Shown here in pieces: positions 4,297-26,702 of a DNA stretch of 64,000 bases (position 1 is its first letter; each line of letters opens with the position of its first letter). The stretch is from positions 2,795,288-2,859,287 of the forward strand of contig WLWT01000001.1 of NCBI GenBank assembly GCA_012103455.1, in the 5' to 3' direction. Position numbers and translations under genes: made by a program. The stretch comes from Gammaproteobacteria bacterium. Its GTDB lineage: Bacteria; Pseudomonadota; Gammaproteobacteria; HK1. The notes under the pieces were generated by a model, which did not search any database, was not told where the DNA came from, and worked only from the letters and a program-made list of their open reading frames with translations.

Positions 4297-4462
4297 ATTT
4301 CACCTCGCTGACAGCAATTTCTATCAACAAACGATGGATGAAATATACCTAACATGTTACTATGAGTCAACACAATAACTTTGATAACCACCAATCTCTA
4401 GGATAAACTAAGGAGTATCTATTACCCAAATAACCTTGTTAGGCAGCAAAACGAGGCTTATC

Positions 4463-5387: not shown

Positions 5388-5407
5388 TCAGGGGTGTTAG
5401 AAAAGCT

Positions 5408-5977: not shown

Positions 5978-6059
5978 TATGGTCTCGTTATCACCTTCCT
6001 CAATAGCATGCGCTAAAGCCGAGCCAACACTATACCCATCGCCATTGAAAGTGCGAATC

Positions 6060-7150: not shown

Positions 7151-7249
7151 ACTCCAGGCGCCCTAGTCGGAGTCGGTCCGGTCGCACCGGTTGGTACACG
7201 TATCGCCTCACCGTTTGGGGTGACTACGAAATCCGGGGCCTTCGATGGG

Positions 7250-7285
7250 TCGGATACCCTCTTTGGCGGACAATTATGAACCCAT
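7250..7285 (-). other. remnant 3' end of a third pretoxin-HINT domain (encodes ...VWVHNC) marking a truncated orphan toxin module
   Basis: ggacaattatgaacccatac matches the VWVHNC-coding sequence at 1370-1390 and 7822-7842. Followed by novel sequence (PPKRVSDPSKAPDFVVTPNGEAIRV...) that runs into IS630. Confidence 0.45.
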
Positions 7286-7305
7286 ACCCCATATATTTTT
7301 TAAGT

Positions 7306-7560
7306 TTACTCAACATACAGCTTATCAATCAGTTCTTCTAAGCTTTTCCCTTTTATGTTGGCGTTATATTCTTCGTCGAAGCCAACTTCCAAAAGATAAT
7401 CAGAACACAGTTCTCTTAAATCGACAGCATCATCTTCATCTAGATCTTTAAGCACAACACAGGTGGGTTGATCTTCGAAATCTAGTCTTTTCTGCCATTT
7501 GAAGTGTTCCTTGACTTCAATCAACATGCCTCTCTGCTGGGAGGTCAGACGCACGATCAT
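7306..7560 (-). CDS. putative immunity protein for the main rhs C-terminal toxin
   Basis: 84-aa acidic ORF whose ATG overlaps the stop of the toxin ORF (7557). Confidence 0.5.
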   Translation of the reverse strand: MIVRLTSQQRGMLIEVKEHFKWQKRLDFEDQPTCVVLKDLDEDDAVDLRELCSDYLLEVGFDEEYNANIKGKSLEELIDKLYVE

Positions 7561-8294
7561 TGCCCACCTCCCTGTTGCCTTTTCAGTCGTTCTGCTAATT
7601 TAGAGCCCGTGGGATGAACAGTAACAACTTTTCCAGTTTCTGGGTTGATCGCCACAGTTGCCTTTTCACCAATGAACTTCTCGCTCGGTCGTCCCTGACT
7701 GTCATATTTTACATTAGTCTTTTTGAGCGGATTTTTTACAGCATCTAGCTCATCAGTGCTTTTTACCTGTCGGTTAATTTTTTGGTTAAGACTATGTTTG
7801 GTGTGCTGTATTGTTCCCTTTGTAACCGGACAATTGTGAACCCATACTCCCCGCTCCCCCACAAAATAAGTATGGAACTGATCAACACTGATATCATAGG
7901 CAAGAAAAGCACTCGCGCGCGTGCGCGCCGCCACTACATCAAGGGACTCGCCCGTCGCTGTCACTAGCTGCATACCCGCCGACACACTATCCGCCCGGAT
8001 AAATCCTCGCCCTCTGACATAGAACGGATGTTCGGCCGTGGTGACGAGGGTCTCTATACCGCCGCCATAGGCAATACCGAGGCTGACGTGGCTGGCATGT
8101 TCTCTCGCGCCCACGCCCGTGACCGCTTGGTAAGCCGTCTCGCCGGTGGTCTCATGGCGTGAAAAGACTAAGTCCCCTCTCTGGCAAGGACTCGATGGGC
8201 ACCAGGCCCTGTTCGGTGAGTACCGGGGTGCCGGCGGGGAAACTGCAGGTGCCTTTGAAGATGCCGCGGACGATGCCATACAGCCTGCGGGCAC
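7557..8294 (-). CDS. rhs: C-terminal portion of main rhs: distal pretoxin-HINT domain plus 90-aa C-terminal toxin domain. It is in a different frame from 8152..15582 because of a 1-nt frameshift at ~8186.
   Basis: ...QRGDLVFSRHETTGE...FHTYFVGERGVWVHNC is near-identical to the orphan HINT domain. It is then followed by the unique tail PVTKGTIQHTKHS...ATVAINPETGKVVTVHPTG. Confidence 0.7.
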   Translation of the reverse strand: MPAGCMASSAASSKAPAVSPPAPRYSPNRAWCPSSPCQRGDLVFSRHETTGETAYQAVTGVGAREHASHVSLGIAYGGGIETLVTTAEHPFYVRGRGFIRADSVSAGMQLVTATGESLDVVAARTRASAFLAYDISVDQFHTYFVGERGVWVHNCPVTKGTIQHTKHSLNQKINRQVKSTDELDAVKNPLKKTNVKYDSQGRPSEKFIGEKATVAINPETGKVVTVHPTGSKLAERLKRQQGGGQ

Positions 8295-11200: not shown

Positions 11201-14200
11201 TTACCGGCGGCATCGGACTGATGGAGGGTGATGTTGCCGTTGGCGTCCTTGACCTTCATGGCTTGGGCAAAGGCGTTGAAATGGCTGTATTCGGTGGTCG
11301 CGCCGGAGGGAGCGGTGATGCGCGTGACGTTGCCGTTGGCGTCGTAGTCGTAGCGGGTGGTCAAGCCGGCGGCATCGGTGCGGGCGATTTCATGGAACGG
11401 GGCGAGTGGGTCGTACGTATGTGCCATGCGCCCGCCGTTCTCATCGATGGTGAGGGTGGGGCTGCCGTTCTCATTGAAGAAATAACGCTTGACGAAGCCG
11501 CGCTCATTGGTGGTGGTGGCCTCGCGGCGATAGTCGTTGTCAGTGAAGGTCAGGGTGCCGCCCCGATCATCGGTGTGGCGCAACACCCGTCCATTGCTGT
11601 AGTACTCGAAGGTCATGCCGTTGCCGTTGGGCTTTTGGGAACGGCGCAGGGCGTGATTGAGATTCACCCCGTCGGCGAGGCCGTAGTACTCGTACGTCAG
11701 GCCCGGTTGCTGGCCGCTGGCCGCGAGCGGGTTATCGACGCGCTCCAACTCGCCGTCGGCGTTGTAGTGGTAGCGCCACTCGCGCCCCGTCGAGGGGTAG
11801 GTCCAGTCACGCAGGTGGGTCAGGCGATGGGCCGAGTCGTACAACAAGGTGATGACCCGGTCGAGGTCATCGGTGACGGTGTCCAGGGTACCGGCTGGGC
11901 CGTAGTCGAAGCGAAGGCCGTTGCCATTGCGGTCTTCGAGGCGCAGCACGCGGGCTGTTTGGCCGACCGTGCCGGGGACATTCTCGAAGAAATAGCTGAA
12001 GCCGTTTTTCTCCCGAATGCGATAGCGCCCATCGGGCTCGCGGCTGGCGGCGAAATAAAAGCCCTGCGGTGGGGTGAACGCGGCGCCGATGGCGACACCG
12101 CCGGCGGCGCCAGCGACGGGGATGAAGCGCTGTCCGCCATCACCGGTGGTCCAGGTGACCGATGAGGTCAGGGTGTCCTCGTCAGAACCTTCCACATCGG
12201 CATCGCCATCGCTGTCCTCGAAGGTCAGGAAGTGATTGAAACTGTGCGTCCAGCCGTAACCGAGGGGCGCCGTTGAGGCGTTGGGATGGGCGGCGGCCAG
12301 ACTGTTGTAGGTGCGTTGAAAGGAGATAGGCAGCCCGCCGCGGCCCATGACCCGCAAGTCCTGCTCGATATCGAACAGGTTGCCGGTGGCCATGTTCACC
12401 GGATCACCGCCGCGCGAGGTGCCGTGGGTGGTGCCGTAGTTGATCATCGAGTTGAGGGTGGCCGGGGCGAGCGCCGTGGGCGTGGACGCGCCAGGGGCAC
12501 CGGCGCGGCGGGCCGGCAAGCGGTAGGTGGGGGCGCTGGGCGTGCGGTTGACCGTGTAGCCACCAGCGAAGGGTCCGATTTTGTAGGTGGCGCTCAAGCG
12601 GTTACCGGACTGGCGCGTGGCCACGTAGATTTGGCCGGTCCATTCACCGTAGTCGATAAGACTGACGGGGATTTTGATGTCATGGCCACTGTTGAGCAGC
12701 CCTTGGAGGGTGTTCTTGGTCGCTTGGCTGTAGTCGAGCGCGCCCTCGCCGACCTGTAGCTTGGGCCACTCGGTCGCTTGGTTGGCGGCATTGATGTCCA
12801 GCACTTCGATGCCGCTGTCGTTGGCGAATTGCAGGCCGCGCACGGCGCTGACCGCGTCCATGCGGGCGTTTTCCTGCCACACATAGGATTCGAGCGCAGA
12901 CAAGGCATAACCACCCAAGACGAAGGCTTCAAAGGAGGTCCGGCCGGTCTCCAGATGGGTGCTGCGCGACTGGCCGCCGGGCACGTCGATGAGGAAACCG
13001 CTGTTGGTGACGGCGTAGGGCAAGTCGAACAGATAGCTCACCTCCGTGCGGCTGGCGGTCAAGCCAATGTGCAGTCCGCTTTGGCCGGACTCGCCGTACA
13101 AGCGCCCGACCCGGTGGTACGCATCGGCGATGTAGTGCAGATACTTGAGGCCCACCAGATGCAAAAACTCCCCTAGCGTCGCCTCCTTGTCCTCGGCTGG
13201 GTCGGGGGTGTTGTTGATCCCTTCGAGCAGCCGGGCGGCGCGCGCCTGAATCAAACGCTCGGAGGTCTGATGGCTGTAGAGGTGCAGGGCGTGATAATCG
13301 AAGGCCGAGAGCGTGTCGAAGCGGGTGGCGTTGAGGGTGGCGCCCCCGAGTTGTACCTCGAGCGATAGGGTGCGTTTGGGCAAGCGATCGACCCGCACCA
13401 CATTGGGGTCGAGGGTGGTGCCGCCGTACCACTCGTTGAGCGCGAAGTAACAGGTGGGCGCGGAGGTCGGGTCGAGGTTGACGGCGGCCCCGTCCACTTT
13501 GAGCACCGGAGTGTGATCCCGGACGCACTGAACGGCCCCGTTGCGCTGGATATAAAGCGCACTACCAGGGCCGTAGCGCGCCTCCAGTTGGCGCAGGTAG
13601 GCGCGGCGCTCGGCGTCCAGCGAGCCGCCGGTGCCGGGTTGGAAGGCGAGGGTGAGCCGTTTGAGGGCGATGGCCGGTACATCCAACACGGCATGGCCCA
13701 AGGTGGCGTTGCTTTGGGCGTTGCCCACGTCGATGGACAGCGTATAGCGGTGTTTGGCGGGCAGGGCCGCGGTCTCGGCGGTGGCGGTGCCATCCCAGGC
13801 CAGGTATTGCCTGACCTCATAGGGCAAGGTGGCGGGCAAGATATCGAGGGTGAGCGGCTCGGTGCGCCCGGTATAGGGCACATCGGCCAAGGTGTTGTTG
13901 CCGTAGCGCGGCGCCAGGGTTCGGATATGGGCTTGGACCTGCGCCTCGAACTGTTCGTGGGGCAACAAAAGAGTGCGCGTGCTCAGATAGCTGGCATAGT
14001 CGAACGATACATCGATGGCGATGCCGTCTTGATAGGCGCGGTTCTTGAAAGCGGTATCGATGGGCACCCAGCGGTGGCCGCGGTTATTGGCGCCGGAGCC
14101 CCGATAGTTCCGGTACGGGATACACGCCTCGACCCACACCTGGGTGAAGAAGACGTTATCTCCGGAGCGGCTCGTCGGGATTTGACCCGAAGCCAACAGA

Positions 14201-15582
14201 GCCGCGGCACCGGTTGCGGACCGGGCGCCTAGCCAGCGGTAGAGCCGCTCGTCGTTGTAGAAAGCGACCTGGCCCTTGACGTAGCGCGCCGGGATGTTCG
14301 AGGCGCGCAACAGCGCGAGGGTGAGCGAGGCGTGATCGGTGGCGTTGGCGGCACCGCTGATGAGCGCGCCCTGAGCGCCTTTGAGTGAGCCGAAATACGC
14401 TTCGAAATCAATCTCATTGCTGACGTACTCGATGATGCGCACGGGCGAATAGCCGAGCGATTGGGCCAGCGCGGCGATGTCCGGTGTGACGGCGACCTCG
14501 GCATGGACAGTGGCGGCGGGGCGGCCTAAGTCCGCGGCGGTGTAGTCGCAGGTGGCCGCTTCAGAGGGGGTGGCGGGCGGTTGGCCGACCGTGATGAAGC
14601 GGGCAGGGGGGGTGAAGCGGCCAAGGTCTGAACGGCCAGGGTCTGAACCGCTGGGGCCTGAACTACTGGGACCGAAGCCGGCGCCGTCGGTGCCCGCGGT
14701 GGTGAATTGGGCGGCAGGGAAGCGGGCCGGTGCAAAGCGCGCCAGGGTGTGGCCGTCCAGTAAGCCATCGAAAGCGCCCACCCGGCGGGCGCGCGCGTGT
14801 CGCGGCGGCGGCGCGGGCTTCGAATCATCGTCGCGCAATACCGGCCGTTCATGGTGCACGGTGGGCTGGTTTTCATTGAACGGTGGCGCCACGTAGCGCC
14901 GTGGCGCCGGGATATTGGGCACCCCTGCGGTGCGCGCCTGACGCCGGCTGCTTTCGACCCGTTGTCCCCGGCGCCATTGGCGCAGCGCCTTGCGCGCCTC
15001 GGACAGGGCCCGGCCTTGTGCCTTGGGGGTTCGGGCCTGGTGGATGGCCCGCAAGGTCGCGAGCACCTCTTCGAAGCGGCGCTGCACGCGGGCGGCGAAC
15101 CGGGGACGCTGGCTGCCCGGTTGGCGCGTAACCTTTTCAATCAGTGCCGGGCGCAACTCGGCAATGGCCGTGATATGGCGCTGAAGCTGGACTTTGGCTT
15201 GGGTGGACAGCAAGGCCCCGGTAGGCGTCGCCCGGCGAATGCGCCGCAGCGTCCTGCTGGTGTCCTTGAGCGTTGCGACCAACTCATGGGAGGTGGTGTC
15301 CAGGGCGCGCACCAGAGAGGCTTGCACGGCGCTGGCGATCAGTTCGCTATGAATGCGCCGGCCCTTGTTGCGCTCCTGGGCGCCAGCGCCGGCCATGGCG
15401 AGGAGTGCCAGTAGGGCGCCTAGCGTTATGGCCAGCGCAAGACGCCTGCCGATGGCCGTGTGTATTCTTATGGCTTGGTCGAAATATCGGTGCTGGGCAA
15501 CAGACCGCGCGAGGCCGAGTGGAGATTGAATGAACTGAGCGGGCGTGAGCCAAGTCGCCAAATAGGTGATTGCACCAAGCAT
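8152..15582 (-). CDS. rhs: RHS-repeat polymorphic toxin (2476 codons): N-terminal leader with Sec-like hydrophobic segment, degenerate transglutaminase-like domain, YD repeats, RHS core YYDPGTGRFTQRDPLG, start of pretoxin-HINT (CSFPAGTPV). The reading frame breaks inside the HINT domain.
   Basis: Numerous YD/RHS repeats (YxYDxxGxL). The core motif is at ~8700-8760. The ORF stops prematurely at 8152 within the HINT domain, unlike the intact orphan copy. Confidence 0.85.
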   Translation of the reverse strand: MLGAITYLATWLTPAQFIQSPLGLARSVAQHRYFDQAIRIHTAIGRRLALAITLGALLALLAMAGAGAQERNKGRRIHSELIASAVQASLVRALDTTSHELVATLKDTSRTLRRIRRATPTGALLSTQAKVQLQRHITAIAELRPALIEKVTRQPGSQRPRFAARVQRRFEEVLATLRAIHQARTPKAQGRALSEARKALRQWRRGQRVESSRRQARTAGVPNIPAPRRYVAPPFNENQPTVHHERPVLRDDDSKPAPPPRHARARRVGAFDGLLDGHTLARFAPARFPAAQFTTAGTDGAGFGPSSSGPSGSDPGRSDLGRFTPPARFITVGQPPATPSEAATCDYTAADLGRPAATVHAEVAVTPDIAALAQSLGYSPVRIIEYVSNEIDFEAYFGSLKGAQGALISGAANATDHASLTLALLRASNIPARYVKGQVAFYNDERLYRWLGARSATGAAALLASGQIPTSRSGDNVFFTQVWVEACIPYRNYRGSGANNRGHRWVPIDTAFKNRAYQDGIAIDVSFDYASYLSTRTLLLPHEQFEAQVQAHIRTLAPRYGNNTLADVPYTGRTEPLTLDILPATLPYEVRQYLAWDGTATAETAALPAKHRYTLSIDVGNAQSNATLGHAVLDVPAIALKRLTLAFQPGTGGSLDAERRAYLRQLEARYGPGSALYIQRNGAVQCVRDHTPVLKVDGAAVNLDPTSAPTCYFALNEWYGGTTLDPNVVRVDRLPKRTLSLEVQLGGATLNATRFDTLSAFDYHALHLYSHQTSERLIQARAARLLEGINNTPDPAEDKEATLGEFLHLVGLKYLHYIADAYHRVGRLYGESGQSGLHIGLTASRTEVSYLFDLPYAVTNSGFLIDVPGGQSRSTHLETGRTSFEAFVLGGYALSALESYVWQENARMDAVSAVRGLQFANDSGIEVLDINAANQATEWPKLQVGEGALDYSQATKNTLQGLLNSGHDIKIPVSLIDYGEWTGQIYVATRQSGNRLSATYKIGPFAGGYTVNRTPSAPTYRLPARRAGAPGASTPTALAPATLNSMINYGTTHGTSRGGDPVNMATGNLFDIEQDLRVMGRGGLPISFQRTYNSLAAAHPNASTAPLGYGWTHSFNHFLTFEDSDGDADVEGSDEDTLTSSVTWTTGDGGQRFIPVAGAAGGVAIGAAFTPPQGFYFAASREPDGRYRIREKNGFSYFFENVPGTVGQTARVLRLEDRNGNGLRFDYGPAGTLDTVTDDLDRVITLLYDSAHRLTHLRDWTYPSTGREWRYHYNADGELERVDNPLAASGQQPGLTYEYYGLADGVNLNHALRRSQKPNGNGMTFEYYSNGRVLRHTDDRGGTLTFTDNDYRREATTTNERGFVKRYFFNENGSPTLTIDENGGRMAHTYDPLAPFHEIARTDAAGLTTRYDYDANGNVTRITAPSGATTEYSHFNAFAQAMKVKDANGNITLHQSDAAGNITQTLVLKANTGAHYDPATWEPVPAAILSWTQQTFDAHGNPLIIKRIRDFQTQQGPTAEFDYTDTANATSGLNPVTVRRCGDLDGDARIERSTECRQVTQSYDALGRPTASIDDNWYRSEHHYDRAGRLVLSTDTQGWPRRYRFDANGNMTGHRLTVTTPGGTPAVVDQSRFLYDALDRPVQSIDAGGFVTRSEYDALGNLTAVVDADGFRTSIDYDALNRAVRVYDEEGHAVVRDYDAIGRVRSITDPNGHQIQHTYYGAAGDGRLRRRTSPLNRYVDFEYDAVGRVTRVVDHLGRDTHTQYDALGRVVRVAGPLHNAAPDLPAIRPVTTYRYNALGNRVQIAAGHTPQTSGTNAGADLTTVQQINTYDDFGRKLSQTDANGNTWTFTYDLHDNLITLVDPKGQRVERDYAYGGYVTERRAYRHASDATPHTTRYTRNALGQVTQVEAPEVTYSYRYDTAHRLVRQADHRGGKSIEYHYSAGGLLNTMGDGEGHLTQYLYDPVGRLATIWAPNGTLVNFGYDAAGRLTERWFDNGLATRYHYNADDTLSRLVNRRADGSQISSHAYSYNAAGLRDTYAQTLGGATRERRYTYDPLDRLTQVTDATDDSLIGAYTYDVYGNRATQDNGDGVRTYTYDAAHQLLTIDSGASTDMGYEYDDNGNLTRQLASGVLPVLTLNYDALDRLSSAELDDGSLETYQYDPGGRRIEKRQGAATERFIYSGANLVADYGGTWTQAAGRYTHAGIDNPLIHTDANGASQFYQQDGLGSVVAMTDAAGTLLGAHQYDAWGTVVTRSGHLQRFGYTGREADATGLLYYRARYYDPGTGRFTQRDPLGFVDGVNQYAYAANNPVMFVDPFGTVATGSIHNNSTAQRTSYEKRPSFWDRVSSAAPQLLSAAAGTAGIPYAESGVLTLFGRHEQAEQAEQAAIEETALRLGGAAVGAGIGALGLGVGAAPGALIGQQVVKMANSARRLYGIVRGIFKGTCSFPAGTPVLTEQGLVPIESLPERGLSLFTP

Positions 15583-15703: not shown

Positions 15704-15959
15704 TGCGCAGGCAGTGGCAGCGTTCTAGGTGGCGTTGAGTGTACGCGGTATTGGGTAGGGAATGAATACCGATATGCTTACTATGCATCCAGTGAGTCAA
15801 TACAAAAAACCCTTGTGTTAACTCCTCTGATGCGAGGTATGATTGCGCCGTCTTGAGGACTCGGCCGCATCCAGGATGTGGCGTGTGCTCATGGTTTGTA
15901 CGGCGAGCTACGGCTTGGAACAGTAGCAGATGGAGTTAGCGGAATAGGTAGGCGGCACA

Positions 15960-16373
15960 ATGATGGTGAAGTGGGTGAAACGGTGCATATTGGTCTGCGC
16001 CATGACCCTGGCCTGCGCGATACCTGCGCTCGCTCAAGAGTTCGAGCCGAAAACGATCCCGCCCGAAACGATCCCGCCCGAAACGATCCCGCGATTCGAC
16101 CTCAAAACCATCCGGGACTCGCGTCCACTTCCCGCTTTTGATGCTACCCGAACGGATGCCGTTGGTTGTGCGGGTTGCGAGGTCATTGATGCAAAGCCTG
16201 TAGCTGCCGTGGCGCGGCCGCCGATTCGCAGGGCACAAGAGAAGACCAAAGCCGCAACAAGCAGGGCGGCGAAAAAGCGCTGCGAATTTGAGGCGAGTGC
16301 GCAAAGCCGAGCCTTTACCTTCTCCAATCAGCGGCTTACCGTTCAAGTGAACACTTGTAGCGCGGCGCAGTAG
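15960..16373 (+). CDS. small putative secreted protein with PETIP tandem repeats
   Basis: Signal-peptide-like N-terminus MMVKWVKRCILVCAMTLACAIPALAQE. 15-nt repeat ccgaaacgatcccgc x3 (16037-16083) encodes PETIPPETIPPETIP. Lies between two divergent giant genes. The coding status is uncertain. Confidence 0.3.
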   Translation: MMVKWVKRCILVCAMTLACAIPALAQEFEPKTIPPETIPPETIPRFDLKTIRDSRPLPAFDATRTDAVGCAGCEVIDAKPVAAVARPPIRRAQEKTKAATSRAAKKRCEFEASAQSRAFTFSNQRLTVQVNTCSAAQ

Positions 16374-16411
16374 GGCCGAGTGATTGCCACTTAATCGAGA
16401 GCATTGCTAGT

Positions 16412-19400
16412 GTGTTGGGTGCATTAAAGGGACTACGCTGGTACTGGCGGGGAACGGTACTGGTTGCGTTAGCGCTGTTGGCCTTTTCGCTGAGTTCATG
16501 GGCGGCAACGCAGACGCAACTCGATGCGGCTAGGGCGGCGGCGCTCGCTTGGTTGATTGAGCGCCAGCAAGGCGACGGTAGCTGGCGGGGACGGCCCGGC
16601 AACGACATTCAGGTATCTGCCAACAGCTTGCTCGCGATGGAACGGGCCGGCGTCAACGGTTATGTGCATTCACGCGGGCTTAGCTGGCTCACCAATGCTG
16701 AACCGCGAAGCATTGATGCGTTGGCGCAGCAGGCGATCGTGCTGCAAGGGGCGGGTCTACAGACGCAGCCTCTGTTCGAGGCGCTGATCGCGAGGCGCAA
16801 CCGGCTGAGTGCGTGGGGTGCGTACAGTCAGTTTTCGACCAGCTTCCCGGATACACCGCTGGCCATGCGCGCCCTGCGCTCCGATGCGGCGACGTATCAG
16901 GCGGAAAGATCCAAGCTGTTGATCGGGCTTTGCGAGATCTTGCGTTCGCAGAAAACCGCCTCTGATGCGGGGAGTTGGTCCTATCTCGCCGCCGATGATC
17001 CAGCGTTGGTGTCAACCGGCAAGAGTGCCGTGATTCCCACCGCGCAGAACGTTGTGGAACTGCACGCCTTCATTGCACTGGGATACTCCGCTAGGACCTG
17101 TAATGGCTACAACTTCAATCTGGCTACCGCTGTAGATGCGGGCGTTGATTGGTTGATCGGGCTCGTTGACGGCGATGGTGGGATCGGTGTGGATGGGAGT
17201 ACGGTGCTGGAGACGAGCGCTGCGTTCCTCGTCATCGATACGGTTCGTTCGGGTGCGCCTTCTCTGGCCGTGTTGCAGGACTATTTGGTCAATACACAGG
17301 CGGCGGATGGCGCCTGGGAACAAGATGCGCTCGTGACTGCGTTGGCGGCCCGAACATTCGCCGCGACCCAACTGGCCGATACCGATGGCGATGGCCTGCC
17401 CGATGTTGTCGAAGCCAGGCTGGGTACCGATCCGGGGCTCGCCGATGCCAGAGCGCTGGTCAAGGGTAACGGTGCCAGCGAACTCGGGATTACCGCACCA
17501 CACGTGTTCTCGGCCCGGCTCGGCCAGCCGTTCTCCGCTGATCTGATGATCACCGGGGGCGTTGCTCCTTATTCTTGGCGGGTAACGGGTTTTCTGCCGG
17601 ACGGGATCGCGTCGGTGGGTAGTACGACGGCTACCAACACGCTGGCGGGTACGCCCACGGTGACCGGAACGTTTAACTTTGGTTATGGGGTGACGGATGC
17701 CAACGGTACGGTACTCACCGGCAATGGACAGCTCCGAGTCAATATCCCACCGGTGTTGGCGGCCCCGGCGGACCCAGTGTCAAGTGAAGGCGCAGCCGTC
17801 TCGCTAACCGTCGCCGCCTCCGATGAGGATGGCGATTCATTGAGTTACAGTGCGAGTGGACTGCCACCAGGGCTGAGCATCAACGCGGCGACTGGCGAGA
17901 TTGTGGGCAACCTGGATTATGTCTCGACCGGTGTCTACGCAGGCGCGACGGTCACAGTCAGCGATGGGTCGGACGCGGTAAGCCAGCAGTTCACTTGGAC
18001 GGTCAACGATGTGGACCGCGAGCCGGTGATCGATACAGCACCGGCTTCGCTGACCAGTGACGAAGGTGCCGCCATCGCGCTGGGCGCGACAGCCAGCGAC
18101 CCGGATGGTTTGGCGGTCGGCTTCAGCTACACCAACCTGCCCCCAGGTGTTACCTACTCCAGTGCAACCGGCGACATCACTGGTACGCCTACTTATGAGG
18201 CCGCGGGTACTTATTCGATTACGTTGACCGTAAGCGACGGCTTTTTGCAGGCCACTCACGGTTTTGTATGGACGGTGAACGACACAAACCGCGCGCCGCT
18301 GCTCGATGACCTTGGCGTGATCTTCGTGAACGAAGGCAACCAGACGGAGCTTACCCTCGCTTTCAGCGATCCCGACAATCATAACTTGAACGTGACGGTG
18401 AACTCGGTGGCCACGTTCGTGACGGCGACGCCCAACCCCGACGGCACGATCACGCTGACGATTGCGCCCGGAAGCGATGATGCTCAGAGCGCTAGTTATC
18501 CGGTTATCGTCAGCGTCACCGATACGCATGCGGCGCCATTGACGACCAGCAAGACGCTGCAGATCGGTGTTATCGAGGATTCAGGGGCGACTCATGTCGT
18601 GCAATTGTCCTCCGGCTACGGCGATTTCAAGCTTGAGTTGTACGGAGCGGTTGCGCCACGAGCGGTCAGTGCGTTTCTGACTTTGGTGTCCACGGGTGAA
18701 CTGGAGGGGTCACTCGTCGATCACATTGGATTTCCAACCCAACGGCCGATTTTGCAGAGCGGTGGCTTGCGTTTAGAAGGGAGCCAATGGGAGCGGGTCA
18801 ACGAGGGTGGGGCGCTTGCGAGCGAGCCGGGTATCGCACATGAGTATGGAACGGTTGCGCTCACGTCGGCGACAGGGCTTTGGCCGAATTTCTCGCGGAG
18901 CCAATGGTTTATCAATCCGGCGGATAATTCTTCGGCGCTGAGTTCAGCTACGCAGACGGTATTCGGGCGAGTGGTGGACGGCTGGCCTGTCATATCAGCC
19001 ATCGCCAATACGCCTGTATACAACGCGAGCGCTATTGATTTCGCTGGGATTGGCCGGGCCGAGGAATCGACTCTAACGCAACTGCCCTTGGTGAACGCTT
19101 CGATTCCGATATTACTGGGCGGTGTTGTTGAACTATCGGCTTACGCCAGACCCTGCACGTTAATCGGGATCGCGGGCGAGCCGTTCCAATCGGAGTTCCC
19201 GCTACCGGTGGGGTTGACGGCGCCCTATACCTATGCGATCAGTTCGGGTGCTTTGCCACCGGGTGTGACACTTGATCCCGTCACTGGAATTATTGCTGGC
19301 GCGACCAACGCCGGTGGGCGTTATCCATTTAGTTACACGATGACGGACGCGCTGTCGGCTCAGGCGAGCGCTCACTGTACGTTTATCGTGAACTCACCCC

Positions 19401-22400
19401 CTGTTGTGCAGATGATTGCTGATCAGAGCAACGAGGAGGGGGAATCGGTCTCGGTGCCGGTGCTGGCGACGGATGCCGATCCAGGCGATATTTTGACCTA
19501 CGGTCTGGCGAGCGGTCACCTGCTACCACAAGGCGTGAACATCGATCCGGTCACGGGTGTCATGTCCGGGGTGATCGCGGCGGCCAGCGCGGGCTCCTAC
19601 ACGCCGGTGGTGACGGTTTCCGATGGCATTTTCACCCTGTCCGAGACATTTGGCTGGTTGGTGGATGCCGCCGATGGCTTGGTGGTGACGGATATCGCCG
19701 ATGTAACCATGGACGAAGGCGATTCGGTTGACGTTGCCGTCACTGCAAGTGGCGTCGCTGTGTCGCTTTGCATCGTACCGGGCAGTCCATTGCCGCCGTT
19801 CGTCACCTTGGCCGACAACGGTGATGGTACGGGGAGTATCCATATCGCGCCTACTCATGCGGATGCGGGTTCGTATACCGTTGCCGTCACGGTTGGCGCT
19901 TCGCAATCATTGTGTACCAGGCCGCCGGAGGCGCAGCTATTTGCCCCGGTGAGGAAGACGTTTACGGTGGACGTGGCAGATGTTAATCAGCCACCCGCGG
20001 TCATGTTGCCTGGCGCCCAGTCCCATCGCGCGGGGGCGACGGTCAATCTTCCTATCCCGGCCTCCGATCCGGAAGGCGGGACGTTGCGATTCGCTGCGGT
20101 TGATTTGCCAGCCGGGCTGACCATAGACGCCGCCAGCGGCACCATCAGTGGCGCCATCGCGCTGGACGCGCGGGGCGACTACAGCGTAGCCCTCTCAATT
20201 TTGGATGTGCTCGACAACCGGGTTCATGGCTACACGCTGCAATGGACGGTTACCGCCAACAACATCGCGCCGACGGCCATCGACGATGCGGTGAGTACCG
20301 ATGAGGATGTCGCCCTCACGTTTGACGTGCGCGTCAACGATACCGATGCGAACGGTGATGTGTTGGCAATCGATAGCCATACGGCCGTGGCGAACGGTAC
20401 TCTTGTTCTCAATGCCGACGGCACATTCAGCTACACGCCCAATGCGCAGTTCAGCGGCTCGGAGTCCTTTGATTATGTGATCACCGATGGCGCCAGCTCT
20501 GACACCGGGACGGTGACCATCACTGTGGAGGCGGTGAATGATCCACCGTCGGTCACGAATCCGGTGCTTGTGAGCAGTGCCGAGAACGATACCGTCAACT
20601 TGACGCTGGTGGCGAGTGACGAAGAAGGACAGGCCCTCACGTACTCAGCATCGGGTCTACCGGGCGGACTTTCCATGAACGCGGACACTGGTGCTGTGAC
20701 CGGCGTGTTGGGCTACACGACGGCCGGTAGTTATACCGTCGCAGCCAATGTGGCCGACGCGGGCGGCGCGTCTACCGAGGTGGTTTTCACTTGGGTGGTG
20801 CGCGACATCAACCAAGCACCCGTGGCGGCGGCCGACTCGGTTTCCACGCCGGAGGATACACCGGCAAGTATTGCGGTGCTTGCGAACGACGTTGAGCCCG
20901 ATGGACAGGCACTAGCTGTCACCGCGGTGACGCAACCGTCCGATGGGACGGCGATCATCAATGCGGACAACACCGTTACCTATACCCCCAACCAGAATTT
21001 CTTCGGCGCGGATACATTTCACTACACCGTGAGTGACGGCTTGCTCGGTATCAATGTAGCGGCTGTAAGCGTTACCGTTACGGCGCAAAACGATGCGCCG
21101 GTCGCGGTCGCTGATAGCGTGACCGTAGATGAGGGTACATGGGCCGTCGTTGATCTCGCCGCCAATGATATTGACGTCGAGAACGCGCTGGACCTTGCGA
21201 GTATCGCCATCACCGTTGGCGCTAACCACGGCACGCTGGTCAACGACGGCGACGGTACAGTGGGGTACCGACACGATGGTAGCGAAACCACGGGTGACAG
21301 TTTCACGTACACGATTGCAGATACTTCAGGTGCATCTTCGAACCCGGTCAGTGTGACCATCACCGTTACGCCGGTGAACGACGCGCCCATTGCGGCGGCT
21401 GATGCGGGAGCGGTGGCCGAAGGCGCCACGCAGAACATTGATATCGCGGGCAATGACACCGACGCGGAAAACGCGCTGGATCCGAACAGTGTGACAATTG
21501 TCAGCGCGCCCATGAATGGATCGGTTCGGATCTTCGCCGACGGTACGGTTGACTACACGCACGATAGTAGTGAAACCCTGGCTGATCGCTTTCAGTACAC
21601 CATCGCCGACACGAGCGGTACGCCTTCTAACGTGGCAAGTGTTGCCATCACGGTATCCGCAGTCAATGACGCCCCGGTTGCATCGGACGACAGCACGGTT
21701 GTCGCGGAAGGGGCAAGTCTTTCCATCGACGTAGTTGGTAACGATGCCGATGCCGATGATGGCCTGGACTTGACGAGCGTGGTGATAGTTGCAGGCGCCA
21801 CCAATGGCACACTCGTGGTCAATTCGAACGGCACGGTGGTTTATGAGCACGATGGCTCGGAAACGCTTTCAGATAGTTTCAGCTACACCGTTGCCGATGT
21901 CGGTGGGGCGGTATCCAACGTTGCTATCGTCGCTATCACTGTTGCTCCGACCAACGATAATCCCGTGGCTGTTGGAGAAACAGTCGCCGTTGACGAAGGC
22001 GGTGCGGTAACAATCAATGTGGTTGTAAACGATACCGACAGCGACGATGCTTTGAATCCGAGCAGTGTCTCAGTGGTGTCAGGTACGACTAATGGCGTAC
22101 TGATCAACCATGCCGATGGCACGCTGACCTATACCCATGATGGCAGTGAGACCACCGCCGATAGCTTCAGCTACACGATTGCTGATACTACCGGCGCGGT
22201 ATCCAACGCCGCCACGGTCACTATCTCCGTGACGCCGCAAAATGATGCGCCAGTGGCCACAGCTGACAGCCAGACAGTTGCCGAAGCCGGCGCAGTCGTT
22301 ATTGATGTGGCGGGCAACGATTCCGATCCGGACGATGGCATCGTTGCCTCGAGTGTGGTGGTGGTTGCTGGAGCGACCAACGGCAGCTTGACCAACAATC

Positions 22401-25400
22401 TCGATGGAACTGTCACGTATACCCATGACGGTAGCGAGACCACCTCGGACAGCTTTACGTACACCATCACCGATGGCAGTGGCGCCGTATCGAATGTGGC
22501 AACGGTCAGCATCGCTGTAACGCCGCACAACGATGCGCCCGTGGCCGTTGCCGATAGTGGTTTGGTGAATGAAGGTGCGGCGCAGACGATTAATCTCATC
22601 GCCAACGATACGGATGCGGATGACGGCATCGATCCGTCCAGTCTCGTGGTGGTGGTGGCACCTGCACACGGTTCGCTGAGCCTGCTGGGCGATGGCACGG
22701 TGAGTTACACTCACGACGGCAGTGAGACCACAACCGATAGCTTCAGCTACCGTGTGTCTGACTTCGCCGGCGCCCCGTCTAATACGGTGACGGCCAATAT
22801 CTCGATTACCCCCATTAACGATATACCGATTGCCGCTGCCGACACCGGCTCAGTGGTCGAAGGCTACAGCGTCATTCTCAACCTGGCGGCGAACGATACG
22901 GACGCGGACGATGGCATCGATCCGGCGAGCATTGTAGTGACGGCGCCGGTCAGCAACGGCTCGCTTATCGTCAATGGCGACGGTACGGTCAGCTATACCC
23001 ATAATGGCGGTGAAACCACGTCGGACGGCTTCAGCTACACCATCGCGGATGCCAGTGGCGCGTTGTCGAACGTGGCGGCCGTGACTATTACGGTGACGGC
23101 GCAAAATGATGCGCCGGTGGCTGCCGGTGACAGTGCGGTCCTCAATGAGGGTGCGAGCACAACCATCAACCTTGTTGCCAACGATACTGACGCCGATGAT
23201 GGTGTTGACCCATCCAGCATCGCCATCATCTCCGGTGTCGCGAACGGCAATGTGGTCATCAATGCCAATGGCACCGTTGACTATGCCCATGATGGGGGTG
23301 AAACGACCAGTGATAGCTTCACTTACACCATCAGTGATGTTGCGGGCGCCGTATCGAATGCGGCGCCGGTCAGCATCACGGTCACGCCGGTTAATGATGC
23401 ACCGGTGGCGGTGGCCGATGCGGCACGCACGGTAGGCGGGATCGAAGTCGTTGTGCCGGTGTTGGCCAACGACGTGGATGCAGATGGAGATCCGCTGCAA
23501 GTGAGCGCGGTGACACCGGCGTCACATGGAGTGATACGCCATGATGGCATGCGCATTCATTACACGCCGGAAGTTGATTTCGCAGGTGTCGAGCGGGTGG
23601 ACTATACGGTGGTTGATGGTCAAGGCGGGAGCCACGGCGCGGCGCTGACGATTACGGTTGAGGCGCCCGGAGTGACGGCGCCGCCGCGTCTGGTGGAGCC
23701 CCCTAATGAAACGGAGGTGGCGACACTGGCGCCACCACTGGTGGTCGCGCACGAGATTCATGATCCACGCCTGGAAGTGGGGTATGAATTCGAGCTCTAT
23801 GAGGATCCGCAGATGCAGGTGTTGGTGCGTCGCGCGACGGTGACGGCCGGCGCACAGACGCTTACGGCGTGGCCGGTATTCCCGCCGTTGGATGCGGATA
23901 ACCAGTGGTACGACTGGCGCGCACGTGGGTTTAACGCGGGTGGGCACAGTGTATGGGTATATGGTGATTTTTTTGTCAACACGGAAAATGACGCCCCGGG
24001 TCCTTTGCCATTGAGTGCGCCGGGGATCGGCGTGGAAGTCGATAGCCTAAGGCCGACCTTGGAGGTGGTTAACAGCGTGGATGTGGATCAGGGCACGGCA
24101 CCGCTGACCTATGTATTCGCAGTCTATGAAAACGACCCCGGCATCAGCCCGGAAGTCTGGCCATTGGTTGAGTCTTCGGCGCTGGCGGCGGGCGACGAAG
24201 GGGTTACGGCGTGGCGTGTTGAAGTGGCGTTGCGGGAGAACCGGGAATACCACTGGCAGGTGACGGTGAGTGACGAGCACGGTGCGCGAACGCGCAGCGA
24301 CGTGGGGCGCTTCTTTGTGAATACGGCGAACGAGGCGCCGCGGTCGCCGGCGGTGGCCGCACCACTGGTGGACGAGGAAGTGCCGACGCAGGCGGTGCGC
24401 TTGCAGGTGCACAATGCGGTGGATGCAGATCGCGACACGCTGCATTACACCTTTGAGCTGGATCGGGGCGAGACCTTTGACAGTGCATTCCAACAGCGCT
24501 CCGAACGGCTGCCCGCGGGTGTGGGGACGACGAGTTGGGACGTTGAGGGGTTAGCCGACAACACCTGGTATGTATGGCGAGTGAAAGCCGATGACGGCGT
24601 CGCGGAGAGTGGTTGGACCAATGGCCGGTTTTTCGTGAACACCCAAAACGACGCGCCCTCGATACCGACGGTGCGTAATCCGGGGAACGGAGCATGGGTT
24701 GGGACGCGCAGGCCGGCGTTGGCCGTTAACGCGAGTACGGACGAGGACGAAGATGCGCTGGACTATGAGTTCGAACTCTACGCCTACAGTCACCGCTCGC
24801 AGGAACTCGCCAGCGCTGTTGAGGTTGAGCCGAGGCGTGGATTGACCAGTCGGACGCCACGGATGTTGTTGGATGACCACCGCTGGTATGCGTGGCGAGC
24901 GCGAGCCGTGGATGAGCATGGAGCGGCGAGTGCGCCGATGGAATGGCAGTGGTTCTTTGTCAATGACAATGGAGTGGATGATGCGCCGGAGTTGGAATGG
25001 GTGCTGCCCTACACGGATATAGAGATACCGACGGAGGACGGCCAGGTTTGGCTGCGCTGGCAGGTTCGGCTGCGCTGGGAAGATAGCGATCCGGACAGCA
25101 ATGCGCGGGTGTCGTTGTATTACGAGCGCGCTGACGTAGATGGACCCGTCGGGACCTTGATTGCCGCGGATATAGAGGAAGACCTGGATGATTGGGGCGA
25201 TGAGTATCCGTGGGAGGTGTCGGGATTGTACCCGGGACATTATCGAGTGTATGCACATATACGCGATGCGCGCAATGAAGTGCGGGTGTATGCACCTGGT
25301 GTGGTCACAGTGATGGCCCTGGTGCTACCAGGGGACTTAAACGGAGATGGGATGACGGATCTCGCGGATTTATACTATATAGCGTCGAGTTATGAGGCCT

Positions 25401-25507
25401 GCACCGGGGCGCCGAATTTTGTTGCGCGAGCCGATTACGATGCGGACGGTTGTGTGACGTGGCGGGATTTTGAGGTTTGGTATTACGACTATTTCTTAAC
25501 CCGTTAA
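16412..25507 (+). CDS. giant secreted multidomain surface protein (3031 codons): signal peptide, prenyltransferase/terpene-cyclase-like alpha-toroid repeats (QxxDGSW), Ig/cadherin-like domains, embedded degenerate cyclophilin-type domain, >12 tandem ~95-aa repeats, four FVNT..NDAP modules, C-terminal type-I dockerin-like pair
   Basis: Single uninterrupted ORF. The motifs are listed in the findings. Confidence 0.85.
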   Translation: MLGALKGLRWYWRGTVLVALALLAFSLSSWAATQTQLDAARAAALAWLIERQQGDGSWRGRPGNDIQVSANSLLAMERAGVNGYVHSRGLSWLTNAEPRSIDALAQQAIVLQGAGLQTQPLFEALIARRNRLSAWGAYSQFSTSFPDTPLAMRALRSDAATYQAERSKLLIGLCEILRSQKTASDAGSWSYLAADDPALVSTGKSAVIPTAQNVVELHAFIALGYSARTCNGYNFNLATAVDAGVDWLIGLVDGDGGIGVDGSTVLETSAAFLVIDTVRSGAPSLAVLQDYLVNTQAADGAWEQDALVTALAARTFAATQLADTDGDGLPDVVEARLGTDPGLADARALVKGNGASELGITAPHVFSARLGQPFSADLMITGGVAPYSWRVTGFLPDGIASVGSTTATNTLAGTPTVTGTFNFGYGVTDANGTVLTGNGQLRVNIPPVLAAPADPVSSEGAAVSLTVAASDEDGDSLSYSASGLPPGLSINAATGEIVGNLDYVSTGVYAGATVTVSDGSDAVSQQFTWTVNDVDREPVIDTAPASLTSDEGAAIALGATASDPDGLAVGFSYTNLPPGVTYSSATGDITGTPTYEAAGTYSITLTVSDGFLQATHGFVWTVNDTNRAPLLDDLGVIFVNEGNQTELTLAFSDPDNHNLNVTVNSVATFVTATPNPDGTITLTIAPGSDDAQSASYPVIVSVTDTHAAPLTTSKTLQIGVIEDSGATHVVQLSSGYGDFKLELYGAVAPRAVSAFLTLVSTGELEGSLVDHIGFPTQRPILQSGGLRLEGSQWERVNEGGALASEPGIAHEYGTVALTSATGLWPNFSRSQWFINPADNSSALSSATQTVFGRVVDGWPVISAIANTPVYNASAIDFAGIGRAEESTLTQLPLVNASIPILLGGVVELSAYARPCTLIGIAGEPFQSEFPLPVGLTAPYTYAISSGALPPGVTLDPVTGIIAGATNAGGRYPFSYTMTDALSAQASAHCTFIVNSPPVVQMIADQSNEEGESVSVPVLATDADPGDILTYGLASGHLLPQGVNIDPVTGVMSGVIAAASAGSYTPVVTVSDGIFTLSETFGWLVDAADGLVVTDIADVTMDEGDSVDVAVTASGVAVSLCIVPGSPLPPFVTLADNGDGTGSIHIAPTHADAGSYTVAVTVGASQSLCTRPPEAQLFAPVRKTFTVDVADVNQPPAVMLPGAQSHRAGATVNLPIPASDPEGGTLRFAAVDLPAGLTIDAASGTISGAIALDARGDYSVALSILDVLDNRVHGYTLQWTVTANNIAPTAIDDAVSTDEDVALTFDVRVNDTDANGDVLAIDSHTAVANGTLVLNADGTFSYTPNAQFSGSESFDYVITDGASSDTGTVTITVEAVNDPPSVTNPVLVSSAENDTVNLTLVASDEEGQALTYSASGLPGGLSMNADTGAVTGVLGYTTAGSYTVAANVADAGGASTEVVFTWVVRDINQAPVAAADSVSTPEDTPASIAVLANDVEPDGQALAVTAVTQPSDGTAIINADNTVTYTPNQNFFGADTFHYTVSDGLLGINVAAVSVTVTAQNDAPVAVADSVTVDEGTWAVVDLAANDIDVENALDLASIAITVGANHGTLVNDGDGTVGYRHDGSETTGDSFTYTIADTSGASSNPVSVTITVTPVNDAPIAAADAGAVAEGATQNIDIAGNDTDAENALDPNSVTIVSAPMNGSVRIFADGTVDYTHDSSETLADRFQYTIADTSGTPSNVASVAITVSAVNDAPVASDDSTVVAEGASLSIDVVGNDADADDGLDLTSVVIVAGATNGTLVVNSNGTVVYEHDGSETLSDSFSYTVADVGGAVSNVAIVAITVAPTNDNPVAVGETVAVDEGGAVTINVVVNDTDSDDALNPSSVSVVSGTTNGVLINHADGTLTYTHDGSETTADSFSYTIADTTGAVSNAATVTISVTPQNDAPVATADSQTVAEAGAVVIDVAGNDSDPDDGIVASSVVVVAGATNGSLTNNLDGTVTYTHDGSETTSDSFTYTITDGSGAVSNVATVSIAVTPHNDAPVAVADSGLVNEGAAQTINLIANDTDADDGIDPSSLVVVVAPAHGSLSLLGDGTVSYTHDGSETTTDSFSYRVSDFAGAPSNTVTANISITPINDIPIAAADTGSVVEGYSVILNLAANDTDADDGIDPASIVVTAPVSNGSLIVNGDGTVSYTHNGGETTSDGFSYTIADASGALSNVAAVTITVTAQNDAPVAAGDSAVLNEGASTTINLVANDTDADDGVDPSSIAIISGVANGNVVINANGTVDYAHDGGETTSDSFTYTISDVAGAVSNAAPVSITVTPVNDAPVAVADAARTVGGIEVVVPVLANDVDADGDPLQVSAVTPASHGVIRHDGMRIHYTPEVDFAGVERVDYTVVDGQGGSHGAALTITVEAPGVTAPPRLVEPPNETEVATLAPPLVVAHEIHDPRLEVGYEFELYEDPQMQVLVRRATVTAGAQTLTAWPVFPPLDADNQWYDWRARGFNAGGHSVWVYGDFFVNTENDAPGPLPLSAPGIGVEVDSLRPTLEVVNSVDVDQGTAPLTYVFAVYENDPGISPEVWPLVESSALAAGDEGVTAWRVEVALRENREYHWQVTVSDEHGARTRSDVGRFFVNTANEAPRSPAVAAPLVDEEVPTQAVRLQVHNAVDADRDTLHYTFELDRGETFDSAFQQRSERLPAGVGTTSWDVEGLADNTWYVWRVKADDGVAESGWTNGRFFVNTQNDAPSIPTVRNPGNGAWVGTRRPALAVNASTDEDEDALDYEFELYAYSHRSQELASAVEVEPRRGLTSRTPRMLLDDHRWYAWRARAVDEHGAASAPMEWQWFFVNDNGVDDAPELEWVLPYTDIEIPTEDGQVWLRWQVRLRWEDSDPDSNARVSLYYERADVDGPVGTLIAADIEEDLDDWGDEYPWEVSGLYPGHYRVYAHIRDARNEVRVYAPGVVTVMALVLPGDLNGDGMTDLADLYYIASSYEACTGAPNFVARADYDADGCVTWRDFEVWYYDYFLTR

Positions 25508-26367
25508 GCGGATGTGGGTATGAAGGCGGGGTGCAAGATGACAGACACAGCAACGAACTCGGTTCGCATTGATTTCGATACGCGCCAACCCACGATGCGA
25601 CGGGCAAACCCATCGATAACGAAGGCGACGTAGACGAACCCTGAGCGGGTTGCGACACAGGTGAAATCGGACCCCCACCACTCGTTTGGACGGCTCGCAC
25701 TGAAGTCCCGGTGGCCGTGGTCTTCGCGGTGGGGGTCCTCCGCCGGGGTTGGGGTGGGTACGCGGGCCCCACGTCTCCCCCCAGTAGTCCCAAGAAACGC
25801 ACGCGCCACGCGGTGGCCTTCACGTTTGAGTGGATGGCATACCTTGCCAACGCCGTAGACCGCATGGTTGTGTGTCCACACCCGCTGCACTTCGGTGGCT
25901 AGCCGTGCGCCGCGTTGAGTCCGCTGTAGAAATGCCTTGGCCTTGAGGGTCGCCCTCACGGGCTTTGTGTTCGTAGTACGTCGATGGGGCAATGGAGCCA
26001 AGTGTTTGCCCATGGGCTCGACCCGGTCAGTACTCCGGTATTGGCCGATAAACGACACTCACGCTTCAGTGGGTGGTCGAGTGCCGCCTGGGCGAAAAAA
26101 GCCGGCGCCTTGGGTAGAATGTCATTGGCCTTGCGTCGCTCTAGATGCTCCCGTTCAAGTGCCTTGAGTCGGCGTTTGTATTGGTCCTCGGCACGCGGTG
26201 CCCGCAACACCCAAGCGCGCGGTGTTTCTGCTGAGCACCCTAATCTTGTCCGCTATCGAACCGATTGTCGTCCACTGAGAGGCATCGTCATCACGATGTG
26301 CCGCAACCCTGCGCACCGCACGCTCTCGAACTTCGGACGACTAGCATTTTTGTTGGGGTTTGTTCAT
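25504..26367 (-). pseudogene. IS3-family element remnant (degenerate orfA C-terminus plus truncated orfB)
   Basis: orfB motif RPNEWWGSDFTCVATRSGFVYVAFVIDGFARRIVGWRVS and orfA tail LEREHLERRKANDILPKAPAFFAQAALDHPLK. IS3-like terminus TGAACAAACCCC at ~26343-26367. Heavily mutated and 3'-truncated at the adhesin stop. Confidence 0.6.
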
Positions 26368-26379
26368 TGCTCCGTACTC

Positions 26380-26702
26380 TCAAGATTTGGAGCCTGCGGG
26401 AATACCGGGGAACAAATTGAATTGTTGAAAGACCATGCCCACTTCCTGGCGAATACGGGTGGCATCGTCCAGATTGCCCGAGATTTCGGTACCGTTCACC
26501 CGGATGAAGCCGTCATCGTGTTCCTCCAGGCAGTTGATACAGCGATCATCGTGGACTTGCCCGATCCTGAGGGCCCGCACATCACCACTCGCTCCCCGTG
26601 CATCACTTGCAAGTTGACCCCTTTGAGCGCTTGAAACGTGCCAAAGTATTTGGAGACGTTTTTGAGTTCGATGATCGGCTCTTCGCTCATGGAAATACTC
26701 AT
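26380..26702 (-). pseudogene. amino-acid ABC transporter ATP-binding protein (GlnQ/HisP-like), frameshifted after Walker A and truncated by the IS3 remnant
   Basis: MSISMSEEPIIELKNVSKYFGTFQALKGVNLQVMHGERVVMCGPSGSGKSTMI then a shift to ...RCINCLEEHDDGFIRVNGTEISGNLDDATRIRQEVGMVFQQFNLFP. The homology ends at ~26412. Confidence 0.6.

Follow-up and report, generated by a model that had tools for sequence, protein, structure and literature searches.

A giant secreted protein combining a terpene-cyclase-like toroid, a cyclophilin-like domain and a C-terminal dockerin, encoded beside an RHS toxin gene in a gammaproteobacterium

Fibrillar adhesins, and the giant proteins annotated as 'tandem-95 repeat protein', are secreted, possess a long stalk of Big_9, cadherin-like or He_PIG modules, and present a putative binding module at one of their ends. 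Monzon and Bateman (PMC8286594) include Big_9 among the stalk domains of fibrillar adhesins; the main text of their paper contains no mention of Dockerin, Pro_isomerase or Prenyltrans. The gene described here is located in a stretch of 64,000 nucleotides (the window) from contig WLWT01000001.1 of the gammaproteobacterial assembly GCA_012103455.1, and encodes a protein of 3031 residues with the general layout of these adhesins. It differs from them by a toroid head, by a pseudo-cyclophilin inserted in the stalk, and by a dockerin in place of an LPXTG motif, a type I secretion system (T1SS) retention module or a CTERM signal. The interpretation considered somewhat more probable than not is that this protein is a non-enzymatic fibre on the cell surface, exported by Sec and similar to fibrillar adhesins, which acts in the same process as the RHS toxin encoded next to it.

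The individual parts of the locus can also be compared with described systems. The toroid shares with class II terpene cyclases (squalene-hopene cyclase; monodomain 8paj; MstE, 6sbb) the (alpha/alpha)6 fold with QW-type repeats, but lacks the DxDD motif, lies behind a signal peptide, contains a conserved Cys pair and scores far under the NCBIfam cut-off. The cyclophilin-like domain resembles PpiA and PpiB of E. coli and human CypA in fold and in the core motifs ELYG..AP, W.IN..N and TVFGRV..G, whereas Arg55 and Phe60 are replaced in the giant proteins, where the domain is embedded between immunoglobulin (Ig)-like modules. As in the type I dockerins of cellulosomes (2y3n_B, 1ohz_B, 1daq_A), duplicated 12-residue F-hand loops, each followed by a helix, are found at the extreme C-terminus; the differences lie in the host, a gammaproteobacterial metagenome-assembled genome (MAG), in the non-enzymatic passenger, and in the Cys-containing subtype (ADYDxDGCVT), shared with the proteins P0029, P0030 and P0031. 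The neighbouring toxin matches the class of Sec/type II secretion system RHS toxins with an inactive N-terminal transglutaminase reported by Zhang et al. 2012 (PMC3482391), since it contains a signal/transmembrane segment, a Cys-to-Ala transglutaminase, DUF6531, RHS repeats and PT-HINT; in the same paper, dead transglutaminases of this type were proposed as peptide-binding anchors. Unlike that class, the giant protein has neither RHS repeats nor a toxin domain.

An earlier note on this DNA had described the open reading frame (ORF) as coding for a secreted protein with an unprecedented mix of domains. Its extent and GTG start were verified and an N-terminal leader was read, while profile and structure searches upheld every fold assigned to it, i.e. 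toroid, Ig/cadherin-like modules, cyclophilin, tandem-95 repeats and dockerin. The refuting outcome named in that note, a failure of profile searches to back the toroid, cyclophilin or dockerin, did not occur. The word 'unprecedented' is not supported, because an identical protein has been deposited and collinear relatives exist. The former is GenBank NKC13295.1, 'MAG: tandem-95 repeat protein [Gammaproteobacteria bacterium]' (P0243, on a 4.70-Mb contig), which is 100% identical; P0095, a match to the toroid profile, is a 3031-residue allele of the window protein whose cluster includes P0243. The latter are P0116 (1953 aa), P0108 (1707 aa) and P0122 (2275 aa, from Ca. Polarisedimenticolaceae), which align collinearly with the window protein over their first 1630-1750 residues (39-41% identity). 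In all three, as in the window protein, the toroid is followed by He_PIG, the cyclophilin (about 730-875), He_PIG, tandem-95 and He_PIG. At their C-termini, P0116 and P0108 also have a dockerin, but its subtype is not that of the window protein. The C-terminal cassette of the window protein, made up of fn3-like modules, a beta-sandwich and the Cys-containing dockerin, recurs at ~40% identity in P0029, P0030 and P0031; dozens of proteobacterial proteins contain it without a dockerin. By this comparison, the window protein consists of the core common to the family, to which eight tandem-95 units have been added by lineage-specific expansion and a tail has been swapped in. Literature searches retrieved no publication dealing with this architecture or with secreted toroids.

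Pfam models were scanned against the whole protein and isolated segments, and NCBIfam models were evaluated at their curated cut-offs. The terpene-cyclase-like toroid with QxxDGSW motifs is supported as a fold by a profile match to squalene-hopene cyclase (E 1.6e-22), though Pfam SQHop_cyclase_C, at 20.6 bits, stays under its cut-off of 26.1; NCBIfam squalene_cyclas reaches 12.1 bits against a cut-off of 322.7. As a terpene cyclase the domain looks enzyme-dead, because the DxDD acid motif is missing. No D.D[DE] motif is found in residues 1-346 of the window protein, residues D374-V-D376-D377 of squalene-hopene cyclase lie opposite T-V-L-E in the HMMER alignment, and DxD[DE]T[AST] occurs in none of the 152 toroid relatives scanned. 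In an alignment of 42 diverse relatives (A5), Trp, Asp and Thr positions are nearly invariant. Cys174 and Cys230 are conserved as a pair, and both are gone in P0007, a pattern that fits a putative extracytoplasmic disulfide. An alpha-2-macroglobulin (A2M)/complement thioester domain was considered and rejected: the CGEQ thioester motif, searched as C[GA]E[QN], is found nowhere in the giant protein, and the toroid profile gave only weak matches to A2M (E 0.06-0.09).

The cyclophilin-like domain, previously placed at about residues 730-870, is matched by Pro_isomerase (PF00160) over residues 730-871, with 51.9 bits in the whole protein and 56.6 bits in the isolated segment against a cut-off of 21.7. 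PpiA-type cyclophilins are its nearest solved structures (PDB, E 3.7e-8). The Arg55 residue is essential to cyclophilin catalysis. Opposite positions 55, 60 and 126 of human CypA, the window domain shows H, P and Q in the MAFFT alignment, and I and P at the first two in the phmmer alignment. Replacement of Arg55 and Phe60 is seen in all four members of the giant family, P0122, P0116 and P0108 included (H/P, H/A, Q/Q and D/G), two of which have additionally lost Gln63, Gln111 and Phe113; all five residues are retained in the nearest free-standing cyclophilins. Because Arg55 and Phe60 are missing in all four, the domain is probably non-catalytic.

At the opposite end of the protein, the two loops DLNGDGMTDLAD and DYDADGCVTWRD follow the canonical F-hand pattern D-x-[DN]-x-D-G-x3-[DNT]-x2-D, and helices are placed at 2984-2993 and 3017-3030 in the predicted model. 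Pfam Dockerin_1 matches the whole protein weakly (15.6 bits, residues 2973-3021) and the last 72 residues alone with 23.4 bits, against a cut-off of 22.9. A profile of the family C-termini (A2), which mixes two subtypes, matches solved type I dockerins with E 6e-14. Taken with the predicted helices, the F-hand loops bear out the C-terminal dockerin with a duplicated calcium-binding segment that had been proposed. Within the subtype of P0029, P0030 and P0031, Cys2997 and Cys3014 are conserved.

Indications on the role of this tail come from short proteins. Most close relatives of the toroid are ~470 residues long and are composed of a signal peptide, the toroid, TSP3, sometimes one He_PIG module, and a C-terminal tail. 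Among 94 short toroid proteins (<560 aa), at least 33 end in a transmembrane-plus-basic tail of the IPTL-CTERM type and at least 20 in dockerin-like F-hands; the NCBIfam IPTL-CTERM cut-off was passed by 4 of the 10 short forms scanned. Since the two kinds of tail occupy the same position in the short forms, the comparison suggests that the dockerin would be a cell-proximal attachment, from which the toroid would be displayed. Pfam Cohesin gave no reported match (E <= 0.001) among the window ORFs scanned, comprising the majority of those with 150 aa or more. Directly downstream of P0116 lies the gene for a 339-aa lipoprotein (FTGC lipobox; 15863..16882 in locus L003), and directly downstream of P0108 that for a 303-aa secreted protein (12586..13497 in locus L005). 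Neither has a Pfam match, and the similarity between them is weak (26% identity over 178 aa, pairwise E 0.002); they are candidates for the dockerin receptors of those lineages. No homologue of them is present in the window.

The coordinates of all features are collected in Table 1. The signal peptide claimed earlier was read from the sequence by eye as a Sec-type leader of residues 1-31, and the homologues have equivalent leaders. The TSP3 repeat follows the toroid in nearly all relatives and is conserved in alignments A1 and A5. The body of the protein contains ~25 beta-sandwich modules of the He_PIG, tandem-95/cadherin-like and fn3-like types; in the whole protein, Big_9 scores 666 bits in 16 stretches, Cadherin_4 579 bits, Cadherin_5 368 bits and He_PIG 211 bits in 8 stretches. 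The NCBIfam model tand_rpt_95 (NF012211) reaches 557.6 bits, against a cut-off of 90, in 12 stretches. The run of consecutive ~95-residue repeats reported in the earlier note holds as to the repeats, their NDAP joints and their approximate length, the period being 96 residues, but not as to strict continuity, since a He_PIG module (1378-1463) interrupts the array. The period is strict over eight repeats (residues 1563-2330), with NDAP joints each 96 residues from 1560 to 2328, the joint expected near 1848 being NDNP. The eight central repeats are 48-64% identical in pairwise comparisons. The corresponding 288-nt repeats were not detected by Tandem Repeats Finder, being too diverged at the DNA level, which speaks against an assembly artefact.

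Four ~110-residue modules had been described as each ending in FFVNT(E/A/Q)NDAP. All four do end in FFVN, and three of them in FFVNT(E/A/Q)N(D/E)AP, but the fourth ends in FFVNDNGVDDAP. Their pairwise identity is 32-42%, and the structure model of the last one resembles tandem fn3 pairs. In the model of residues 2750-3031, two beta-sandwiches, resembling tandem fn3 or cadherin pairs, are followed by two helices. An 18-bp tandem duplication (25043..25078, 2 copies, 94% match), encoding QVWLRWQVRLRW, is located within the terminal beta-sandwich.

Table 1. Location of the giant gene, of the modules of its product and of the adjacent genes in the window. Residue numbers refer to the 3031-residue protein.
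Feature	Position	Strand	Remarks
Giant gene	16412..25507	+	3031 aa plus stop codon; GTG start; extent exactly as given in the earlier note
Sec-type signal peptide, residues 1-31	16412..16504	+	Basic n-region, hydrophobic core TVLVALALLAFSL, SWA/A cleavage motif; no lipobox Cys
(alpha/alpha)6 toroid, residues ~32-320	16505..17371	+	QxxDGSW-type motifs; Cys174/Cys230 conserved
Bacterial TSP3 calcium-binding repeat, residues 323-341	17378..17434	+	DTDGDGLPDVVE; Pfam TSP3_bac 25.4 bits, cut-off 25
Four Ig-like modules (He_PIG type), residues ~355-720	17474..18571	+	
Cyclophilin-like domain, residues ~725-900	18584..19111	+	Pfam, PDB alignment, residue table
Four more He_PIG/Ig-like modules, residues ~905-1285	19124..20266	+	
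Tandem-95 (Big_9/cadherin-like) array, residues 1286-2420	20267..23671	+	11 repeats and one interleaved He_PIG (1378-1463)
Four fn3-like 'FFVN' modules, residues 2430-2852	23699..24967	+	Weak Pfam Ig_Rha78A_N, PhoD_N and fn3 matches; 68 homologues
Terminal beta-sandwich, residues 2858-2972	24983..25327	+	No Pfam match; structure model
Dockerin, residues 2973-3031	25328..25504	+	Two F-hand loops plus two helices
Small upstream ORF, 137 aa	15960..16373	+	Signal peptide and TIPPE repeat (TIPPETIPPETIP); 38 nt upstream of the giant gene
RHS polymorphic toxin, divergent neighbour	8152..15582	-	Transglut_core, DUF6531, RHS repeats (Pfam)

The divergent polymorphic toxin gene pointed out by the earlier note is an RHS gene with DUF6531 and Transglut_core domains. 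Its product starts with a hydrophobic leader and a proline-rich stretch, and its transglutaminase, with Ala at the position of the catalytic Cys of 3isr, is inactive. Orthologues of this toxin gene are found directly upstream of the giant gene at the P0116 loci (L003 and L004; 2537 aa, 45% identical over 2112 aa to the window toxin) and at the P0108 loci (L005 and L006; truncated where the contig stops, 51% identical over 1495 aa). The P0122 locus (L002) gives no information on this point, as its sequence begins only 1.9 kb before the gene. Adjacency is thus seen in 3 of 3 informative lineages, the window included. In addition, P0113 consists of a toroid plus He_PIG head fused to an RHS protein 32% identical over 1799 aa to the window toxin. 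From the adjacency and the fusion a functional link between fibre and toxin is plausible, although the sample is small. What is new here is the conserved adjacency, and occasional fusion, of this class of Sec-type RHS toxins with toroid-headed proteins. The window toxin itself shows no toroid family in Pfam, and its first 500 residues were read by eye only; its BLAST match to P0113 starts only past the toroid of the latter.

The window toxin locus (1060..8294) looks decayed or rearranged. The main ORF ends inside the Hint motif, PT-HINT continuing in another frame (ORF 7557..8294, minus strand); a DDE_3 transposase is located at 6383..7138, and two orphan RHS pieces, at 2783..3718 and 1060..2868 (both minus strand, the second with RHS, DUF6861 and PT-HINT), are 49-54% identical to the toxins of L003 and L005. 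Elsewhere, in locus L001, the gene for P0029, the protein most closely related to the window fn3-like/dockerin tail, is immediately preceded upstream by one for a free-standing Transglut_core protein (8020..8865), which shares 32-34% identity with the transglutaminase domains of RHS toxins; here again a transglutaminase accompanies a dockerin protein.

The distribution of the toroid was evaluated by an exhaustive profile search, which detected 5949 proteins at E <= 1e-3 and 302 at E <= 1e-30. Such a search was required, as word-indexed searches produced only 7 (toroid) and 19 (cyclophilin) distant matches and missed the family. The toroid-TSP3 head is a promiscuous N-terminal module, present on hundreds of secreted proteins. 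In 42 longer relatives it is combined with He_PIG (22), TSP3 (9), Big_9 (7), FG-GAP (6), SBBP propellers (5), CARDB (4) and TcdB_midN (4), and it is also fused to Kelch propellers and RHS toxins. P0109 and P0117 carry the same head on SpvB/TcdB_midN/RHS architectures, i.e. on proteins similar to Tc-toxin B/C. The giant family with both toroid and cyclophilin is small and rare: in species-representative genomes and metagenomes, full matches to the Ig-plus-cyclophilin core were obtained only from Polarisedimenticolaceae and a Thiohalobacter fragment, the other matches in genome and metagenome contigs being almost only free-standing cyclophilins.

The window was compared with two other assemblies of the same organism (L167 and L168). 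Both are identical to it over 843 nt upstream, 5 kb downstream, and codons 1-593 and 916-2480, and differ from it at 47 and 55 nucleotides, all within codons 594-915 (~18191..19156), corresponding to the fourth Ig-like module and the cyclophilin-like domain, and codons 2481-2911 (~23852..25144), corresponding to the fn3-like modules and the terminal beta-sandwich. Codon changes include 22-30 non-synonymous and 19 synonymous ones, and a dense block at residues 2791-2814 holds 11 replacements among the three assemblies. The variable tracts look like recombination tracts imported into exposed modules.

Some features of the surrounding DNA should be mentioned. The 137-aa ORF preceding the giant gene has no family match, is annotated as a gene in L167 and L168, and may be co-transcribed with the giant gene. 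A riboswitch and promoter search of the 830-nt upstream region gave a sole Rfam match at chance level (E 0.34) and no sigma-70-like site. The Arg/Ser-rich downstream ORF 25984..26634 (plus strand, 216 aa) looks spurious: it matches no family, and since the other assemblies have different small genes annotated there, it is unlikely to be a gene. Farther downstream, the segment 38000..40700 has a low GC content (0.48) and contains an IS4/IS5-family transposase (39802..40635) beside a truncated methyltransferase ORF.

When the criteria for fibrillar adhesins are applied, a repeated stalk is present, neither the toroid nor the cyclophilin-like domain belongs to the known adhesive domains, and dockerin anchoring is derived from the alternation with IPTL-CTERM tails. 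A T1SS-exported giant adhesin of the RTX/BapA-LapF type was rejected, given the N-terminal Sec leader, the C-terminal dockerin, and a score of 78.5 for NCBIfam adhes_GNV_Cterm, below its cut-off of 180 and covering repeat units only. A dockerin next to two enzyme folds could also denote a cellulosome-like extracellular enzyme, whose toroid would be a working catalyst, acting on terpenoid or prenyl substrates or as an (alpha/alpha)6 barrel of the glycoside hydrolase (GH) type, whose cyclophilin would be a working foldase, and whose dockerin would dock into a cohesin scaffoldin. Such an enzyme is highly improbable, because catalytic residues are missing, both the cyclase acid motif in the window toroid and all the relatives scanned and the cyclophilin residues throughout the giant family, and because no scaffoldin, nor any cohesin or carbohydrate-active enzyme, is found among the window ORFs scanned; moreover, identity of the toroid to GH barrels is only 6-11%, and ~80% of the protein is stalk. 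A structural protein of the matrix or envelope, biofilm or S-layer-like, without a specific ligand and with the toroid and cyclophilin-like domains as stable spacer folds, would account for the predominance of repetitive stalk in the protein mass and for the lineage-specific expansion of the similar tandem-95 repeats, and proteins with such repeats are common and poorly characterised. It is nevertheless unlikely, because head and cyclophilin-like domain are conserved: the N-terminal 1600 residues keep them in order and position at ~40% identity across lineages, and toroid Trp, Asp and Thr hardly vary among the diverse relatives. Strain variation is, in addition, concentrated in the cyclophilin-like and fn3-like modules, as would be expected of interaction surfaces.

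More closely tied to the toxin, the giant protein might be a dedicated component of the RHS system, i.e. a carrier or receptor-binding arm that binds the toxin, for example holding its proline-rich N-terminus by the pseudo-cyclophilin or acting via the dockerin receptor, and presents it to targets. The adjoining orthologous RHS genes, the Rosetta-stone fusion of a toroid-He_PIG head to the same RHS subfamily in P0113, the toroid heads of the RHS/Tc-like proteins P0109 and P0117, and the proline-rich N-terminus and dead transglutaminase of the toxin, the latter of a type proposed as an anchor for peptides, all speak for it. Yet gene orientation varies (divergent in the window, tandem elsewhere), RHS loci are mobile and often lie beside genes for other large surface proteins, and the toroid module is fused to many non-toxin architectures too. 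This possibility is retained as a tentative one.

According to the favoured interpretation, that of a non-enzymatic surface fibre acting together with the toxin, the protein would be exported by Sec, and its ~25 modules would form a stalk ~100 nm long, stiffened by calcium at the cadherin-like and TSP3 sites. The dockerin would provide a calcium-dependent, cell-proximal attachment by binding a cohesin-like or other surface receptor, while the toroid, and possibly the pseudo-cyclophilin, would be ligand-binding modules held away from the cell. Fibre and toxin would cooperate: most likely, the fibre would either establish or stabilise the contact between cells on which the toxin depends, or keep the toxin at the surface. 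Several points weigh against this proposal. The 64-kb window yielded no cohesin, nor any other candidate for the receptor, among the ORFs scanned. The orientation is drawn solely from the short relatives, and in the RHS fusions the toroid is placed at the end usually thought to remain with the producer cell. The synteny is based on three independent lineages; the loss of canonical residues does not exclude non-canonical activity in the toroid or the cyclophilin-like domain; and we know of no ligand for any secreted toroid of this family. A bolder proposal, regarded as doubtful, is that the fibre and the RHS toxin with its inactive transglutaminase constitute an undescribed two-gene, Sec-dependent system of contact-dependent antagonism in sulfur-cycle-type Gammaproteobacteria, in which a dockerin-anchored fibre of ~100 nm would capture neighbours via the toroid, or carry the toxin via the dead cyclophilin or the dockerin receptor, the two being fused in some lineages.

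The additions to prior knowledge are two dead enzyme folds, evidence on the dockerin as an anchor, and a conserved association with RHS toxins of the Sec type. It is customary to label giant repeat proteins 'adhesin-like' and to leave it at that, while the window protein belongs to a definable family with testable features. Its head represents a secreted terpene-cyclase-like toroid without the catalytic acid, a domain with no known function that heads the 302 close relatives, and its cyclophilin fold, minus the catalytic residues, represents an extracellular pseudo-enzyme. The alternation of dockerin and IPTL-CTERM tails is comparative evidence that non-cellulosomal dockerins act as surface anchors in Gram-negatives. 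Finally, the pairing and fusion with Sec-type RHS toxins bear on how RHS toxins without type VI secretion system or contact-dependent inhibition domains reach their targets.

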